This document shows positions 31,883 through 38,698 of a stretch of DNA of 64,000 bases, piece after piece. The stretch is from assembly GCA_039918435.1 (NCBI GenBank), contig JBDSHN010000056.1:7756-71755 (forward strand), in the 5' to 3' direction. Each line of letters opens with the position of its first letter. Positions within the stretch are counted from its first letter, which is position 1. A model generated the notes under the pieces. It had not been told where the DNA came from, did not search any database, and worked only from the letters and a program-made list of their open reading frames with translations. The position numbers were made by a program, and so were the translations under genes. This DNA is from Bacteroidia bacterium (lineage in GTDB: Bacteria; Bacteroidota; Bacteroidia; Palsa-965).

Positions 31883-32362
31883 ATGTTTAGAGCACTGCTG
31901 ATCTCATCCTTCGTTGTGTTTCTTTCTGGGAACATACATTTATCCGCACAATGTGTAGATAGTACGCAGGTTCAATATGGCGCTTATTGCGATCCGCAGT
32001 GGATTCCCGTATGCGGTTGTGATGGAATTACCTACAGGAATGATTGTTTTTCACGTAACCAGGGTTTGCAGCAATGGAGCTATGGAATTTGTGAGGCGAT
32101 TGATTTTGATTTTAATCCGAATCCTGCCGATCCTTTTAATGAAAACGTTTATGTGGATGTAATCATAAAAACGCCGGGCTATATGCAGGTTCAACTAATG
32201 GACCGCTTCGGGCGTATTTTTTATTCTACCTCTTATGTAAATCCGGGAGAGATGACTTTCCAGATGGGTGTCAGGGGTTTTCCTGCGGGATTATATTACA
32301 TTCTTATCTTTTGCGCTGATGGATACAAAGTGCGCAAGCTGATGATCGCTGATAATATATAG
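31883..32362 (+). CDS. Kazal-type domain protein with T9SS-like C-terminus
   Basis: Signal peptide; CDPQWIPVCGCDGITYRNDC; FNPNP...GLYYILI. Confidence 0.7.
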   Translation: MFRALLISSFVVFLSGNIHLSAQCVDSTQVQYGAYCDPQWIPVCGCDGITYRNDCFSRNQGLQQWSYGICEAIDFDFNPNPADPFNENVYVDVIIKTPGYMQVQLMDRFGRIFYSTSYVNPGEMTFQMGVRGFPAGLYYILIFCADGYKVRKLMIADNI

Positions 32363-32487
32363 ATCCGGCCAGCACTGTTTTCCTTTTTCATTTCTCAATT
32401 TAAAATCCACATGGAAATTAAATTCGAATAGGTCACAAAGCTTGATCGTATGGAGACAGATACTATTCAACCGACCGAATTTTAATT

Positions 32488-32553
32488 TGCTAATGACAAA
32501 TTGCAAATGAGGAATGTTTGAATTTTTGCGATTTGCACATTGTCACATTAGCA
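32488..32553. repeat. Low-complexity imperfect inverted repeat
   Basis: TGCTAATGACAAATTGCAAAT faces ATTTGCACATTGTCACATTAGCA. Confidence 0.5.
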
Positions 32554-32626
32554 CATTTTTTTTCCTGCCTTATGGAATCCTTCAAATCCCCGCATCTCAT
32601 AGCTGAATCTTCAAAAAAGACAGCTT

Positions 32627-33490
32627 ATGCAGTATGTAATTTCTCTCCTCCGGCGGCCCGCGTGGCTAAGTGTATTTCAACCTTTCCGCAATGCCATTGA
32701 TTGGTTTAAAAGCGATGCAAGGCATTACCAGGTTTTATTTCAACTGAGCTTTTTACTCTACGGAATTTTCGCGCTGGATTGGGAAATTCCATTGATGCGT
32801 TTTAATATTGTTATTCTCGCTTGCCTTGCCACGCAGACTTTGTTTATTCTGTTTAAAACTAAAGACTGGACTGGGCTAAAAAGTGCGCTCATAACTGCAT
32901 TCAGCTTATGCTTGATGCTTGCAGCGAACAGCACATGGACATTTGTACTTGCAGCAGTACTTGGCATTTCAAGTAAATTTTTTCTGAAAATAAACGGTCG
33001 ACATATTTTCAATCCGGCCAATTTCGGTATCATGATCACGCTGCTGATCACAGGCGACGCATGGATCTCTCCCGGGCAATGGGGAAGCAATGCAATATTG
33101 CTGATGCTTGTTGGCTGCACAGGGCTTGTTGTATTGCTGAAAGTAAAACGGCTTGATACGGCATTCGCATTTCTCATTGCATTCCTCGGATTAAGTTTCA
33201 TCCGCAATATTCTTTATCTCGGATGGCCGCTTGATTTTTTCTGGCACCAGTTCAGCACCGGTTCACTTTTACTTTTTGCATTCTTCATGATTACCGATCC
33301 GATGTCAACGCCTTCCGCAAGACCCGCACGAATCATCTGGGCATTGCTCGTTGGCGCATTGAGCTGGTACATCTCCACAAAACTTTTCGTCCACATCGCT
33401 CCGTTATGGGCACTCTTTGTATTGAGTCCGCTGGTTCCGGTGTTTGATCGATTTTTCAAAGAGGAAAAATTCAGGTGGGGTAAAAGTTAG
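32627..33490 (+). CDS. Stand-alone RnfD/NqrB-like membrane protein
   Basis: Multiple TM helices; HIFNPANFG and FFMITDPMSTP motifs typical of RnfD/NqrB. Confidence 0.7.
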   Translation: MQYVISLLRRPAWLSVFQPFRNAIDWFKSDARHYQVLFQLSFLLYGIFALDWEIPLMRFNIVILACLATQTLFILFKTKDWTGLKSALITAFSLCLMLAANSTWTFVLAAVLGISSKFFLKINGRHIFNPANFGIMITLLITGDAWISPGQWGSNAILLMLVGCTGLVVLLKVKRLDTAFAFLIAFLGLSFIRNILYLGWPLDFFWHQFSTGSLLLFAFFMITDPMSTPSARPARIIWALLVGALSWYISTKLFVHIAPLWALFVLSPLVPVFDRFFKEEKFRWGKS

Positions 33491-33622
33491 GTGGTAAAGA
33501 AGCTGGTAGTTGGTGGTAAAAAAACAAATCAACTACCGCGATTACCAACCACAATTCTTTTGAAGCACCAACCAATTTTTTATAAAAAATCGCTCCGTCA
33601 ACCAATCACTAAATTCATTCAC

Positions 33623-35113
33623 ATGAAAAAGATCATATTAACTATCGTCACCTTTTCCCTTGCTATAAATGGTTTCACATTTTGCGGATTCTACGTAGCT
33701 AAAGCGGACACAAAACTTTTTAATAAAACCTCGCAGGTTATTATTTGTCGCGACGGAAATATAAGCACCATCACCATGTCGAGCGATTTCGAAGGTGATG
33801 TGAAAGATTTCGCCATGGTCGTTCCTGTTCCTGTTGTGCTTGAGAAAAAAGACATACGGGTAGTGGAACGTTCGCTGTTCGATAAGCTCGATGCATATTC
33901 ATCACCACGGCTTGTTGAATATTACGATGAAGATCCGTGTAATACATACCGGTATTATAATTATCCGATGTCATCTGCCGGAGCTATGTATGATGATAGT
34001 ATGACGTTAGAATCCGAGACCACAAAAGATGTAAAGTATCATGTCACAATAGAAGCAAAATATACGGTTGGCGAATATGATATTTTAATTCTTTCTGCAA
34101 AGGAATCGGGCGGGCTTGAAATGTGGCTGACTGATAATGGCTACAAAATTCCACCCGGTGCGAAAGAAGTGCTTGATCCTTATATTAAAAGCAATATGAA
34201 ATTTTTTGTGGCAAAAGTAAATCTTGGCGAATACACGAATGCAGGAGCAGTTCCGCTTCGTCCGATCCAGGTTACTTTTGATTCACCAAAATTTATGCTG
34301 CCAATCCGTTTGGGGATGGCGAACGCAGACGGCGACCAGGATATGATCGTGTATGCGTTTTCAAAAACAGGACGCATTGAAACAACGAATTATCGCACAG
34401 TGCAGGTTCCGACAGATATGAAAGTGCCGTTGTTCGTTGCAAATGAATTCGGACCGTTCTACAAAGACCTGTACACACGCGCATGGAGACGTGAAGAAAA
34501 AGATGTCGTGTTTTTAGAATACGCATGGGAAGTAAGCCCGATGCAGAACGTATTTTGTGATCCATGCGTGGGCGATCCGCCGATGGTGCAGGAATTAAAA
34601 GAGTCGGGCGTAACATGGCTAACTTCGCAGGGACAGGATTATCACACGGGTGGGAATGTGTATGACGGCAAAGTTTATTTCACGCGCCTGCATATCACTT
34701 ACAGCCGCACTACTTTTCCGCAGGATCTTATGTTCCAGGAAACGCCGAACAAAAGCAACTGGCAGGCACGTTATGTTTTAACACATCCTGCATCGAGTGG
34801 TTTTGATTGCGAAAAAGGCCAGACTTACCTGCACGAATTAAGAAAAAGACGCTGGGATGAATTGTATACTTATCAATGGTTAACAGGCCGAGACATTAAC
34901 ACGCACCTGGATTACCCGGTTGAATACAATCAATTTCTCAAGAAAAAAGATCATAAAGACGAAGGTGTAATGCCGAATACATTCACAACTCCGACGACAA
35001 ATAATCCGAATGGGGGAGGAGGAATGGGAGTCATTTTCCTTTCGATGGGAACGATGCTTGCGATTTTCTTTGCGCTTTCGAGGACGAGAGTTCAGAAGAC
35101 GGAGGTGGCTTAG
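33623..35113 (+). CDS. DUF2330-like exported protein with C-terminal membrane anchor
   Basis: Signal peptide, FCGFYV, FAMVVPVP, FVAKVN, CDPC; start moved to the ATG at 33623 past a low-complexity spacer. Confidence 0.75.
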   Translation: MKKIILTIVTFSLAINGFTFCGFYVAKADTKLFNKTSQVIICRDGNISTITMSSDFEGDVKDFAMVVPVPVVLEKKDIRVVERSLFDKLDAYSSPRLVEYYDEDPCNTYRYYNYPMSSAGAMYDDSMTLESETTKDVKYHVTIEAKYTVGEYDILILSAKESGGLEMWLTDNGYKIPPGAKEVLDPYIKSNMKFFVAKVNLGEYTNAGAVPLRPIQVTFDSPKFMLPIRLGMANADGDQDMIVYAFSKTGRIETTNYRTVQVPTDMKVPLFVANEFGPFYKDLYTRAWRREEKDVVFLEYAWEVSPMQNVFCDPCVGDPPMVQELKESGVTWLTSQGQDYHTGGNVYDGKVYFTRLHITYSRTTFPQDLMFQETPNKSNWQARYVLTHPASSGFDCEKGQTYLHELRKRRWDELYTYQWLTGRDINTHLDYPVEYNQFLKKKDHKDEGVMPNTFTTPTTNNPNGGGGMGVIFLSMGTMLAIFFALSRTRVQKTEVA

Positions 35114-35114
35114 G

Positions 35115-35173
35115 AATTCAATAATTCAATCTTGTCCGTAGGACACCTACGGACAAGATTGAATTATTGAATT
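35115..35173. repeat. Perfect 28-bp-stem palindrome
   Basis: AATTCAATAATTCAATCTTGTCCGTAGG-ACA-CCTACGGACAAGATTGAATTATTGAATT. Confidence 0.9.
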
Positions 35174-35236
35174 GAAAAAATCCCTGCTGTGAGGTGGGTT
35201 TTTTTGTTTAAATAAAATCATACATTTATCAACCCC

Positions 35237-37354
35237 ATGAAATTAGCTTATCCAAAATCACCTTCTGGTTTTCCTGCCGAGCTTACGCAAACGAGTTCAG
35301 CTTATCATAAAGGCATCAAGCGATCAATCTTAAGTGTAATGCTTTTTTTGTTTGTGTATGCTCTCTTTATTTTTATCAACATCGCAGCTATTGCTTTTAT
35401 TGTAGACCTGGTTTTACATGAAGTACTTCACCCCCTACCGTTTTTCTTTTTGCTTATTGTGTTACTTATTGTGTTGGGACTACAAATCAATTTTTTAATA
35501 TTTGAAAAGAAATCGGACACAGATATTTCTATTGAAATCACAAGAGAGAACGAGCCAGGTTTGTTTTTATTTATTGATAAGTTATGTGATGAGGTTGGGT
35601 CACGTCGTCCTGGTAAAATTGTTGTTTCACATCGTAATAATGCAAGTGTATTTGAAAAAACAAGTTTCTGGGGTCTGATTGTACCTCCGAAGAAAAATCT
35701 CGAAATAGGTCTTACGCTCATTGCTTCGTTGGATATCGTTGAGTTCAAAGCTGTATTAGCACATGAGTTTGGCCATTTTTCCCAATCCGCTGCGCGTGTC
35801 GCTCCTTATGTTTATTCTGCTAACCGCGTTATAGGGCAAATGGTTTATTCCCGTGAATTTTGGAACGGATCTTTTTCAGAAGTCGCAAATCTGAATTGGG
35901 TTTTTTCCATTGTAGGACGACTTATTTTTGAGTTCGGTCGGTTGCAGCGATATGTATTTATAAAGGTATATAACTATATGAATAAAACTTATATGCAGCT
36001 TTCACGTGAAATGGAATTTCATGCCGACTCGATTGCAGTAAGCACTACTGGGAATGTTCCTATTATTTCCGGATTAAAAAGGTTGGTTTTTGCTGATTAT
36101 TGCCTTAATGGATTTAATAATTATATAGCGAAAGGTTTGGAAGAAGAAAATTGCCTCCCGGATAATTATTTTAAATCGTACGCTGACTTTGTTAGTGATT
36201 TCATTGCATCTAATCATTTTAAAAGTTCCGAAAATGGTTTAGTGAGGGTGACGGAAGAGGATATGCTTGATTTCTTTCCGGAAAGAAAGCTTGTTTATAA
36301 AAATTTATGGGAATCCCACCCTTCGATTTTGGAGCGTGAGAAAAATACTAACCGGATTTTAATTGAAAGCACGGTGGATGATTCACCTGCTTATTTGCTT
36401 TTTCAAAATTGGGAGAAGCTTACTGAAAATTTGTCTGGAATGTTGATGAGAACACAAATAAAATCAATGGAATTAAAACCTGTAATTATTCCATCGGATG
36501 AGTATAGTGTCAAAATATTTAAGTGGCTTAGCAAAGAAATTATTCCAAAACGTTATAATGGCTTGTATAATTCAAGGATAATTGCCCGTATAAAGACTAA
36601 CGAAATTGTAACAAACCCACTTAAAGCACTGGAATTTGATCAGATCATAGGCGATCCCGAAAAGACGTTGGCATTAAAATTCAAAACATTACGGATGGAT
36701 ATTTCGGATCTTATTGCAATAGGCCAAAAAAACCTAGATGTAAACATCTTTGAATACGACAATGAAAAATATAAATGGAAGGATGCACCTGAGCTTATTG
36801 TAGAATTGACTGCGCAGCGGGATGATTGTAAAAAAATTCTTGAACAAAAAGACGGGGAGATTTTCATGTATCACTGGCATAAGGCAAAAATTAATCCTGC
36901 TTTATTTGAAGAGCTTGTGTTGGCGGGCAAAAACCATGAAAACCTTTTTTCAATGTTGGATGAACTGGAGCCTATAAGAGAACTGCTCATTCCTTTGATG
37001 CAGGATTTTTACACAAGAGAGCAAATTTTTCGTTATGATCAAGCTGCTTTTGCTCCTGGTTTTGATAAAGCAATGCGAAAGTTTTATCAAGCGATGAAAA
37101 ATATTGAAACGTTAGCTTTTACCTCTGCCATAGGGGATATAAAAATTGAAAAAGGAATTATCAACCATATCTGGAAAGGTAAAACGCCGGAACCGGTTAG
37201 TCCTGTGTTTACATATGAAATAATGGAGGTTTTTTGGCAGGAATTTACTTTAGCACTTGATAAACTGGCAATACTACAGATCGAAAGCCATATAGTAATT
37301 TTAAATTGCTACGAAAAAATTTATAAACCGAATCCAACAGAAAACGTACACTAA
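35237..37354 (+). CDS. M48-family membrane metallopeptidase
   Basis: AVLAHEFGHF (HExxH), SREMEFHAD, SHPS; N-terminal TM helices; AT-rich (line 35521: 17/60 GC). Confidence 0.8.
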   Translation: MKLAYPKSPSGFPAELTQTSSAYHKGIKRSILSVMLFLFVYALFIFINIAAIAFIVDLVLHEVLHPLPFFFLLIVLLIVLGLQINFLIFEKKSDTDISIEITRENEPGLFLFIDKLCDEVGSRRPGKIVVSHRNNASVFEKTSFWGLIVPPKKNLEIGLTLIASLDIVEFKAVLAHEFGHFSQSAARVAPYVYSANRVIGQMVYSREFWNGSFSEVANLNWVFSIVGRLIFEFGRLQRYVFIKVYNYMNKTYMQLSREMEFHADSIAVSTTGNVPIISGLKRLVFADYCLNGFNNYIAKGLEEENCLPDNYFKSYADFVSDFIASNHFKSSENGLVRVTEEDMLDFFPERKLVYKNLWESHPSILEREKNTNRILIESTVDDSPAYLLFQNWEKLTENLSGMLMRTQIKSMELKPVIIPSDEYSVKIFKWLSKEIIPKRYNGLYNSRIIARIKTNEIVTNPLKALEFDQIIGDPEKTLALKFKTLRMDISDLIAIGQKNLDVNIFEYDNEKYKWKDAPELIVELTAQRDDCKKILEQKDGEIFMYHWHKAKINPALFEELVLAGKNHENLFSMLDELEPIRELLIPLMQDFYTREQIFRYDQAAFAPGFDKAMRKFYQAMKNIETLAFTSAIGDIKIEKGIINHIWKGKTPEPVSPVFTYEIMEVFWQEFTLALDKLAILQIESHIVILNCYEKIYKPNPTENVH

Positions 37355-37516: not shown

Positions 37517-37909
37517 TTATTTCGAATCCTGGATCTTATCCTCTTCACAGTAATCATCCCAGCCGCATTTATTTAAGCCGCTTTTGAATTTCTCTCTTTC
37601 TTCCGGCGTCATGTTTGCCATTTTTTCTTCCCAGCGTTTTTTCCACATTCCACCCCGGTGATGATCTCTCCATCCGCGAGGCCCGCAGTGACGATGACGA
37701 CCGCCTTTACCACCAAATCCACTGAAGAGAATTTTGCCAAGAATAAGTAAGCCCAGCGCCTGCCAGTAAGTGATCATTTTTAGTCCGAAGATATCCGGCA
37801 TAAGCCAATTCCAGAGTTGCATTGTTACATAACTGAAGCCGAATACGGCAAGCGTTATAACAGCGGCAATGCAAATGCCTTTGAGTATATTTTTTAGTAT
37901 GTAATTCAT
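37517..37909 (-). CDS. Small membrane protein downstream of the ECF sigma factor
   Basis: VMQLWNWLMPDIFGL..ITYWQALGLLIL motif; Gly/His/Arg-rich tail; start moved to the ATG at 37909. Confidence 0.75.
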   Translation of the reverse strand: MNYILKNILKGICIAAVITLAVFGFSYVTMQLWNWLMPDIFGLKMITYWQALGLLILGKILFSGFGGKGGRHRHCGPRGWRDHHRGGMWKKRWEEKMANMTPEEREKFKSGLNKCGWDDYCEEDKIQDSK

Positions 37910-37984
37910 TGTTTTTTGTTTTTTAGTTTGGAGTGTTTTGTTCGGAGATTCTGCCAGGGGTTTGTCTCCGAACGCTAAACTCAT

Positions 37985-38575
37985 TTACGAATTCATGTCA
38001 TCATATATTTCACGCAGGCGTTCTCTTAAATAAAGAACGGCATATCGTTTTCTGGAAAGAAGCGTATTGACGGATACTCCTGATTCTGCGGCCAGCTCCT
38101 TGAAGGGGCGATCTTCAATTTCATTTTGAATGAACACCCAACTTTGTTCTTCAGGCAGCTCGTCGAGAGCCAGCATCAATTCATTCATGATCACGCGGCG
38201 GGCATATTGAGCTTCTGGTCCTGCCGACGCGTCCGGCAACAGGTCATTTAATCCCAATCCTTCATCGCCATCATCGTTCACCCTTTCATAACGCGCCTCG
38301 AGCGATTCGGTGCGGCGTTTTCTGAAAAGGTCAGCGATCTTATTGCGTGCCACACGGTACATCCAACCAGAAACCCGCTCGATCACATTATCTACCCGAA
38401 GATTTTCGGTGAGCTCAATGAAAACATCCTGCAGGATATCTTCTGCGTCTTCCGTTTCGGGAACACGTTTGCGGATAAATTCGAACAAACGACGTCTTTC
38501 TTTGTTGACAGTGTCAGTAAGAATCCGGTTTTGTTCTGCGGCCATTAGTGTCTGATTGTATACCACTTCCTTCAT
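37985..38575 (-). CDS. ECF-type RNA polymerase sigma factor
   Basis: AEDILQDVF, GWMYRVARNKIAD, LDELPEEQ, SVNTLLSRKRYA. Confidence 0.88.
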   Translation of the reverse strand: MKEVVYNQTLMAAEQNRILTDTVNKERRRLFEFIRKRVPETEDAEDILQDVFIELTENLRVDNVIERVSGWMYRVARNKIADLFRKRRTESLEARYERVNDDGDEGLGLNDLLPDASAGPEAQYARRVIMNELMLALDELPEEQSWVFIQNEIEDRPFKELAAESGVSVNTLLSRKRYAVLYLRERLREIYDDMNS

Positions 38576-38698
38576 GTTTATAGTGTGAGGTCGTGGCGGG
38601 ATGGAATATATTTTATTAAAGGTCAACTTTTTTTTGGGAATGAGAAGAAAGGAGCAGGAAAGTGAGGGGCAGGGGGCAGCAGAAAAAAGGGGACGGAA

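Follow-up and report, generated by a model that had tools for sequence, protein, structure and literature searches.

To our knowledge, RnfD and NqrB are known only from ion-pumping redox complexes of six or seven subunits or, in the so-called Nqr/Rnf-like systems, from beside an ApbE-flavinylated protein. In this work we describe a gene pair in which the membrane core of RnfD/NqrB, stripped of its covalent flavin and of all its known partners, is genetically (and often physically) joined to a large exported protein family, DUF2330. The pair is located at positions 32627 to 35113 of a 64,000-nucleotide stretch of contig JBDSHN010000056.1 (assembly GCA_039918435.1) from a Bacteroidia bacterium of the Palsa-965 lineage; this whole stretch is hereafter called the window. 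The first gene (32627..33490, + strand) codes for a short inner-membrane protein of 287 amino acids (aa) that has the RnfD/NqrB fold but lacks the loop carrying covalent flavin mononucleotide (FMN), and the second (33623..35113, + strand) codes for an exported DUF2330 protein with a 496-aa precursor. A literature search found no paper mentioning DUF2330, and the term "RnfD-like" has been used only for a different Nqr/Rnf-like system. With respect to the literature, the pair is thus a variant of RnfD/NqrB with an uncharacterised partner family, and its fusion architecture is already visible in domain databases. What is new here is the exact whole-genome co-occurrence of the two families in two phyla, the observation that a C-terminal LTGW helix (and not a CDPC motif or the N-terminal Cys) tracks the partner, and the mapping of the riboflavin site of NqrB onto the membrane subunit, including a change of Asn200 to His.

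Two-subunit "Nqr/Rnf-like" complexes were reportedly described by Meheust et al. in 2021. In NqrB, cryo-electron microscopy (cryo-EM) has located a central riboflavin that is hydrogen-bonded to Thr162, Asn200, Asn203 and Asp346, as well as to the backbone of Gly198, Ala205 and Phe342 (PMC9325719, PMC10643135). The D346A mutation cripples the enzyme (PMC10643135). In the two-subunit complexes, a non-flavinylated NqrB/RnfD-like subunit is accompanied by a periplasmic partner that is predicted to be docked over the same pocket (Huang et al., bioRxiv 10.1101/2024.03.13.584918). The window pair resembles them in that its NqrB/RnfD-like subunit is non-flavinylated and has only one extracytoplasmic partner, itself anchored in the membrane. 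However, the membrane subunit of the Nqr/Rnf-like complexes is fused to a cytosolic nicotinamide adenine dinucleotide (NAD)-binding domain (PF00175), and their partner is an ApbE-flavinylated FMN_bind protein of the NqrC/RnfG type, whereas the window pair lacks each of these. PF03116 (NQR2_RnfD_RnfE) is the sole family match of the 287-aa protein, in which no PF00175 domain was found, and the partner matches PF10092 (DUF2330) only, with no FMN_bind domain. A motif search of both sequences gave neither a [ST]GA[ST] motif nor any ApbE-type flavinylation motif, in agreement with the initial annotation of this DNA, made from the sequence alone, which had reported that (S/T)GAT is lacking.

The logic proposed below for the pair is also like that of DsbB-DsbA and VKOR, in which a quinone-linked membrane protein trades electrons with a periplasmic CxxC protein. 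However, the folds are unrelated, catalytic Cys pairs are missing from the membrane subunit of the window, which would depend on a flavin, and CxxC is not universal in DUF2330.

Co-occurrence and fusion of the two families

Both family assignments were confirmed by hidden Markov model (HMM) searches. PF03116 matches the 287-aa protein with 57.9 bits, the gathering cut-off being 27.7, and the match covers the C-terminal half only (aa 148-282). PF10092 matches the second protein over its full length (E = 3.9e-74 to 5e-74, profile positions 5-278 of 279). The open reading frame (ORF) of this exported partner had initially been given a start at 33491, but the first codon of the homologues corresponds to the ATG at 33623 (MKKIIL...), and hence the gene starts there.

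The two genes are separated by an intergenic spacer of 132 nt (33491..33622, + strand), in which the upstream frame stays open after a single TAG; it contains a moderate hairpin (z = -2.1) and no terminator was found in it. The stop codon of the DUF2330 gene is followed by a perfect hairpin with a 28-bp stem and then by a terminator-like hairpin with a T-run (35115..35208, + strand; z = -7.9), which likely mark the end of the transcription unit. Since terminator-like structures are found 3' of the DUF2330 gene and none in the spacer, the pair apparently forms one transcription unit, separate from the downstream gene for an M48 peptidase.

To place the pair among its relatives, species-representative genomes were scanned for loci with a pattern derived from the subset of DUF2330 sequences that share FMLPIRLG, and 80 loci were obtained, all of them in Bacteroidota. 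An RnfD-like gene lies immediately 5' of DUF2330, on the same strand, in 78 of these 80 loci (counts over metagenome contigs and metagenome-assembled genomes, here and below, are not phylogenetically independent), and behind it stand between one and six DUF2330 copies in tandem. For each of the two exceptional loci, a strong RnfD-like gene is present elsewhere in the genome.

The genome-wide co-occurrence of the pair, which the initial annotation had put forward as a check, turned out to be exact in the samples studied. In an even sample of 301 Bacteroidota genomes, DUF2330 is present in four; the strong RnfD-like matches (329-475 bits) are found in the same four genomes, directly upstream, and in none of the other 297. 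Among 151 Myxococcota genomes, all 19 strong RnfD-like matches adjoin or are fused with DUF2330, and a strong RnfD-like gene is present in 18/18 genomes with the coupled class of DUF2330 and in 0/133 of the remaining ones. The coupled class is patchily distributed, with carriers making up about 1% of the genomes in Bacteroidota, 7% in Nitrospirota and 12% in Myxococcota. Altogether, at least six phyla have the module, which is represented by thousands of sequences, cultured organisms such as Nitrospira moscoviensis included.

In many organisms the two families are joined in one polypeptide. More than 100 single-chain proteins with PF03116 and PF10092 are listed, with lengths of 700-800 aa and source names that include Nitrospira, Thermoanaerobaculia, Vicinamibacterales, Myxococcaceae, Thermodesulfobacteriota and Cyanobacteria, and the fusions are spread over Nitrospirota, Acidobacteriota, Myxococcota, Thermodesulfobacteriota, Cyanobacteria and Bacteroidota. 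They constitute 10 of the best 150 representatives at 50% identity, and in Nitrospirota five of the eight matches lie within frames of at least 753 aa. For instance, in the complete genome of Nitrospira moscoviensis the fusion is a true, isolated single ORF of 742 codons and is monocistronic. Fusions retain a signal-peptide-like helix and the AxA-FCGFY junction, and therefore the two halves may still be parted after export. In the window the two ORFs share a frame with one TAG between them, which raised the possibility of programmed read-through or of a recent split; this was rejected, since the same-frame arrangement is found in 26/78 loci, which is the chance rate. True fusions are present in 12/78. 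A pseudo-fusion model of the window pair, in which the TAG was read as Gln and which was built with 121 natural fusions, reached a predicted template modelling score (pTM) of 0.80 over 828 residues, 134 of them disordered, and this value is consistent with a defined arrangement of the two domains. The natural fusions are ready single-chain constructs for biochemistry and cryo-EM.

The genome to which the window belongs is 99.8% complete and contains one PF03116 match and one PF10092 match, which are those of the pair itself. ApbE (PF02424) was not found in this genome by a search that was positive in 8/14 control genomes. The absence of further rnf/nqr genes and of apbE, first noted for the vicinity of the pair, is therefore true of the whole genome. 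Since the only PF03116 gene stands in a genome without ApbE, it cannot have strayed from a larger complex, and flavinylation of the covalent ApbE type is excluded in this organism. Considering that the two families co-occur and fuse far beyond the clade of the window and that cysteines of DUF2330 are conserved, the proposal that they form a genuine two-component unit is borne out, and it is near-certain that the two genes function as one obligate unit.

Two isolated cases concern the integrity and architecture of these genes. A Bacteroidota RnfD-like gene (G103:C39:14346-15143) has an in-frame TAA inside the match, and it may be a pseudogene or the product of a sequencing error. In a protein of 931 aa (P0391, from a contig of 343,698 bp) a GYD domain (PF08734) and DUF2330 are found in a single chain, an architecture met nowhere else.

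The membrane subunit and the riboflavin-pocket residues

The RnfD-like protein of the window scores far below the curated NCBIfam equivalog or subfamily cut-offs for RnfD, RsxD and NqrB (TIGR01946, 38.1 vs 207; NF002011, 25 vs 415; NF003756, 24.5 vs 414). Its AlphaFold2 model, built with 56 homologues, has a predicted local distance difference test score (pLDDT) of 87 and a pTM of 0.83. In Foldseek searches this model is superposed over its full length on the RnfD structures 8rbq_D and 7zc6_D, with template modelling scores (TM-scores) of 0.66-0.70 (E = 4e-7 for 8rbq_D), and on NqrB with a TM-score of about 0.6; urea transporters and Rh/Amt channels rank below these. The ten-helix fold over the full length, together with the FNPA and TDP motifs, is common to the window protein and to RnfD/NqrB subunits of known structure (8rbq_D, 7zc6_D, 9eri_D, 7xk3_B). 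However, the window protein is about 65-130 residues shorter, the FMN loop and its Thr are gone, RnfA/B/C/E/G, NqrA/C/D/E/F and ApbE are not encoded in the genome, and the protein is paired or fused with DUF2330 instead.

In the profile alignment to Azotobacter vinelandii RnfD, positions 146 to 148 of the query correspond to RnfD positions 142 to 210, so that residues ~143-209 of 8ahx_D are skipped. According to this alignment, the periplasmic loop of about 65 residues that bears the covalent FMN is wholly deleted from the RnfD-like protein. At its place stands the motif WISPGQWG (aa 146-153; 33062..33085, + strand), of which W146, P149, G150, W152 and G153 do not vary among 56 split and 122 fused sequences.

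Other conserved residues fall on the riboflavin site of NqrB. To transfer the numbering of Vibrio cholerae NqrB, a Bacteroidota NqrB was used as a bridge, and direct HMM alignments were made to 7xk3_B/9lrr_B and to A. vinelandii RnfD. The FNPAN motif (aa 128-132; 33008..33022, + strand), which follows the invariant H126, is collinear with riboflavin contacts of NqrB without any gap: G198-R-N200-F-L-N203-P-A205 of NqrB corresponds to G124-R-H126-I-F-N129-P-A131 of the window protein. The columns of H126, N129, P130 and N132 are invariant in the split and fused sequences mentioned above. The second motif, FFMITDP (aa 219-225; 33281..33301, + strand), aligns F220-M-I-T-D224-P with F342-M-A-T-D346-P of NqrB, so that D224 corresponds to Asp346 and F220 to Phe342, and Thr162 of NqrB aligns with the nearly invariant S/T90 of a "SALIS/T" motif. 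The sole change in the pocket is that of Asn200, which is replaced by the invariant His (H126). The pocket residues are conserved not only in the 56 split and 122 fused sequences but also in a sister subfamily described below.

The motifs FNPA (aa 128-131) and FMITDP (aa 220-225), the latter first noticed as FMxTDP, are thus present as initially described, and by alignment they correspond to the residues that hold riboflavin in NqrB. The membrane subunit most likely still binds flavin non-covalently, or else some comparable redox cofactor, and the retained NqrB-type pocket is, as far as can be judged from the alignment, the strongest functional clue at hand.

The sister subfamily consists of short RnfD-like proteins found at seven loci (L086-L092, in genomes G007, G264, G184, G116, G036, G172 and G248) that score 126-156 bits to the profile of the DUF2330-coupled proteins, the coupled proteins themselves scoring 329-475. 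Its members are like the window protein in length, in the H-x-x-N-P-x-N, QWG and FFMITDP motifs and in having an exported partner. However, this partner belongs to a different family, since the RnfD-like gene always adjoins a gene for an FG-GAP/UnbV_ASPIC (CRTAC1-like) protein of about 600 aa, and no DUF2330 was found in those genomes. Genes for cytoplasmic CMD/AhpD-like CxxC proteins also adjoin in 3/7 of these loci, which fits a thiol-redox theme.

About 20 weaker matches to short RnfD-like proteins (82-120 bits) were found in Myxococcota, inside frames of 750-1400 aa and away from DUF2330 (for instance, G542:C1:8467299-8468000, G570:C1:2334400-2335107 and G507:C1:4560266-4560955). In these proteins the RnfD-like core seems to be fused to further large domains.

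Cysteines and C-terminal helix of the DUF2330 protein

The conservation of cysteines in DUF2330 was determined in 68 full-length copies of the domain, out of 150 representatives, down to about 35% identity. The proteins of the branch coupled to RnfD-like genes are exported by the Sec route. The precursor begins with a predicted signal peptide (aa 1-19), followed by the mature N-terminus F-C21-G-F-Y (33623..33694, + strand for the whole element); in relatives an AxA sequence is followed by [F/M]CG[F/C/G]. C21 is present in 58/68 representatives and is invariant in 122 rows of the fusion type. The next Cys, C106, is present in 68/68, and the loop behind it (aa 107-135; 33938..34027, + strand, including C106) is hypervariable and disordered. 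In ten tandem or related copies, column identity in the loop after DPC106 is 0.19-0.41, the values for the core being 0.6-0.85, and pLDDT in the loop is below 50. DUF2330 has a second variable loop at aa 331-345.

The CDPC motif (aa 312-315; 34556..34567, + strand) is found in 54/68 representatives; C312 and C315 are always lost together, and this loss of the pair affects 13/68 diverse relatives (~20%). C396, which is present in 68/68, opens a segment containing a C-terminal helix that extends to LTG(R/W) (34808..34891, + strand; residues 729-753 of the pseudo-fusion model). In the window this motif reads WLTGR (aa 419-423). Near the C-terminus lies a transmembrane anchor (aa 467-486; 35021..35080, + strand), and the basic stretch RTRVQK comes after it. 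Comparison of C-termini showed three types in DUF2330 proteins: a transmembrane anchor with basic residues, as in Bacteroidota and in the window; a soluble tail to WWxxLW; and a MYXO-CTERM-like signal of Cys, transmembrane stretch and Arg. The features first described for the partner, namely export, CGFY (aa 21-24 of the precursor), CDPC and the hydrophobic C-terminal anchor, were all found again, and with regard to conservation it is C106 and C396 that proved to be invariant.

Tandem arrays of DUF2330 genes after a single RnfD-like gene reach four copies in L005 and six in both L007 and L104. In L104 the second copy has no N-terminal Cys (FGGFY) and its five siblings keep it.

Three elements of DUF2330 were compared with the presence of the RnfD-like partner. 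The first is the CDPC motif, for which the initial annotation had put forward a check of whether it faces the membrane subunit. This motif was rejected as an interface or essential redox centre. It is dispensable for coupling, since copies without CxxC are still coupled: proteins with the N-termini MCTMF, MCGCM and MCGGM are encoded directly behind an RnfD-like gene (L102, L128 and L131).

The N-terminal Cys was a second candidate. On metagenome contigs, an RnfD-like neighbour was found for 0/6 solitary DUF2330 genes without this Cys and for 79/81 with it (nominal p = 5e-8). However, the idea that the Cys exists for the RnfD-like partner was overturned by seven Myxococcota genomes that have no RnfD-like gene and keep AFCGFY. 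Even remote DUF2330 paralogues (~80-90 bits) keep A-CGGFFC or A-CGCF. Therefore, the Cys of CGFY is present as first stated but it is not specific to the partner; a Cys at the head of the mature protein is a mark of the superfamily as a whole.

The element that does follow the partner is the LTGW helix with its WWxxLW tail, which is found in every coupled copy of Myxococcota. The same module is present in the solitary class-A/A' copies L118, L119 and L115, whose genomes (G549 and G551) carry an RnfD-like gene elsewhere, and it is absent from the uncoupled Myxococcota class, which is found in genomes without an RnfD-like gene. Members of the uncoupled class (L107-L117) keep AFCGFY, C106 and CDPC and have a MYXO-CTERM-like end (GCxC, a hydrophobic stretch and RRRR), which suggests that they are anchored at the surface by a myxosortase. 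The window protein belongs to the coupled branch as so defined, with C396, WLTGR and the partner gene 132 nt upstream. Since it tracks the RnfD-like partner, the LTGW helix is the best candidate for a docking element.

Possible functions of the pair and its genomic surroundings

The reading that we favour, although tentatively and with less than even confidence, is that the pair works as a small relay, linked to quinone or flavin, that carries electrons to a periplasmic thiol protein. Its closest published precedent is the two-subunit Nqr/Rnf-like complex. The RnfD-like subunit would hold a non-covalent flavin or a similar cofactor in its NqrB-type pocket, and electrons would be exchanged between the membrane quinone pool and the DUF2330 domain, which would be docked on the outer face. 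There, WISPGQWG would take the place of the FMN loop. The thiols of DUF2330, that is, the N-terminal Cys and also the CDPC pair where it is present, would act as acceptor or donor. Conceivably, a flavin might be attached to the N-terminal Cys by a thioether link and replace the ApbE-dependent flavin of RnfG/NqrC. Provided that the riboflavin pocket is functional, electrons would have, in this pair, a minimal path through the inner membrane to periplasmic thiols that does not require ApbE. As for the two kinds of cargo proposed in the initial annotation, delivery of electrons to a periplasmic thiol protein is in keeping with the retained pocket, but no electron-donor domain was found, and nothing in the analysis supports the delivery of a lipid-linked substrate.

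Several observations weigh against such a relay. No cytoplasmic electron-donor domain was found, nor any dedicated partner gene among the neighbours of the 80 loci, and the fusion gene of Nitrospira is monocistronic. Conserved Cys pairs are absent from the membrane subunit, about 20% of relatives, coupled ones included, are without CDPC, and the N-terminal Cys is equally conserved where the genome has no RnfD-like gene. A sequence-profile search of the PDB with DUF2330 gave no relative and a PDB fold search gave no significant match to the DUF2330 part of the model, so that no thioredoxin-like or other known redox fold was detected in this family. Flavin binding is deduced from alignment only, with the riboflavin ligand N200 changed to His. 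Finally, tandem amplification (up to six copies) and a hypervariable loop are commoner in recognition or trap proteins than in redox enzymes.

The want of an encoded electron donor also speaks for a different role of the RnfD-like protein, which might be a channel or transporter of an ion, a solute or a cofactor such as flavin to or from DUF2330, without net electron transfer, or might serve mainly as a membrane dock. We regard this as an unlikely reading, though it fares best among the alternatives. The folds ranking directly after RnfD/NqrB are those of urea transporters and Rh/Amt channels; NqrB itself has half-channels for the passage of Na+, with F338 and F342 as their gates (PMC10643135), and F220, the counterpart of F342, is conserved in the family of the window protein. 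Moreover, other classes of DUF2330 have different membrane anchors, such as the MYXO-CTERM-like tails, which suggests that the partner serves in part for localisation. However, the conserved residues lie at the riboflavin site and not along the published Na+ path, and this site plugs the centre of NqrB (PMC9325719). In addition, the DUF2330 proteins of Bacteroidota have a transmembrane anchor of their own, so that docking alone would be an insufficient reason for the partner.

The tandem copies and the variable loop have led to another reading, which we consider somewhat less probable still: DUF2330 could be a membrane-tethered covalent trap or inhibitor of proteases or of other thioester-forming enzymes, with a fold like that of P35, the caspase inhibitor of baculoviruses and entomopoxviruses. 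The loop would be the bait and the N-terminal Cys the nucleophile, and the RnfD-like protein would dock DUF2330 at the inner membrane and might also maintain the Cys in reduced form. The two best fold matches of the model in BFVD are P35 proteins of a granulovirus and an entomopoxvirus (E = 7.8e-3, probability 0.99, TM-score 0.41, and E = 9e-3, probability 0.87, TM-score 0.31, respectively), and in P35 the thiol of Cys2 traps the acyl-enzyme (PMC7863939). DUF2330 has a Cys at mature position 1 or 2 across the superfamily and shares with P35 this Cys at the start of the chain as well as a long exposed early loop, which in DUF2330 is disordered, follows the invariant DPC106 and differs among tandem paralogues in arrays of up to six copies. 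A Kazal-like secreted protein is also encoded just upstream in the clade of the window.

However, the fold match is weak (TM-score 0.31-0.41, with a root mean square deviation of 9-14 Å), P35 chains are absent from the 50 best PDB matches, and the Pfam P35 profile gave no match in 46 DUF2330 members even at E <= 10. Unlike P35, DUF2330 is larger, with a core of about 400 aa, exported and membrane-tethered, it has further invariant cysteines, and no sequence kinship between the two is detectable. No cognate protease is encoded nearby, and a trap of this kind leaves an RnfD-type core with a conserved cofactor pocket, as well as its frequent fusion, unexplained. If the P35-like reading were true, a fold so far ascribed to insect viruses alone would have a huge bacterial reservoir.

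A combination of the relay with the trap can also be conceived, though we give it little credence. DUF2330 proteins would then be cellular counterparts of the P35 fold, otherwise found in viruses only, and would capture target enzymes covalently, be it by a thioester or a disulfide, with the first Cys of the mature protein and the hypervariable bait loop. In one large branch, the RnfD-derived flavin core would be joined to them by the LTGW helix and would pass on electrons of the quinone pool, so that the capture Cys is maintained or restored in the oxidising periplasm. Such a redox-maintained covalent trap would be an envelope machine of a kind not so far described.

The genes upstream of the pair form a copper/metal-resistance island, whose order is as follows: a CusA-OEP fusion of a resistance-nodulation-division (RND) pump with an outer-membrane channel, a CusB adaptor, an AraC regulator, HMA-MauE, DUF3347, a CopA-type multicopper oxidase with two HMBD modules and a Kazal-like protein of the type IX secretion system (T9SS). 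That the pair is an accessory of this island and handles periplasmic copper is very improbable: it lies directly downstream of the metal genes on the same strand and its Cys motifs could bind Cu(I), but genes for CopA, HMA-MauE, DUF3347, CusB, AraC or M48 are found within 10 kb in 0/80 related loci, the contexts in Nitrospira and Myxococcaceae have nothing to do with metals, and a gap of 264 bp, plus the Kazal-like gene in the closest relatives, separates pair and island, which is thus a bystander.

The Kazal-like gene (31883..32362, + strand) codes for a Cys-rich secreted protein with a C-terminal sorting domain of the T9SS, as identified with Pfam. Apart from the window, only the five closest loci (L003-L007) have it upstream on the same strand, and it is not a general part of the module. 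When all genes up to 6 kb away were clustered de novo, no conserved third partner emerged, no family being present in more than 20/80 loci.

Downstream of the pair, the window has a set of genes with an extracytoplasmic function (ECF) sigma factor (37517-38626, - strand) that is convergent to the pair and includes a small membrane protein or Spy/CpxP-like (Metal_resist-type) protein. Sets of ECF sigma factor, anti-sigma factor and Spy-like protein accompany about 15-20 Chitinophagaceae loci (for instance, L015, L028, L071 and L053) and are separately transcribed. These neighbours give a weak hint of a connection of the pair with envelope stress. In L003, L005 and L006 a convergent pair of small membrane protein and ECF sigma factor is found, which in the window is displaced by the 2.1-kb M48 gene. 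In these three loci no such peptidase gene (35237-37354 in the window) stands between DUF2330 and the ECF pair, and in the window it is preceded by the hairpin with the 28-bp stem. It looks like an insertion. On the other side of the pair, in the 264-bp gap between the Kazal-like and RnfD-like genes, an imperfect inverted repeat is found at 32470-32560 (z = -3.1), which could be an operator or an element like the repetitive extragenic palindromic (REP) sequences.

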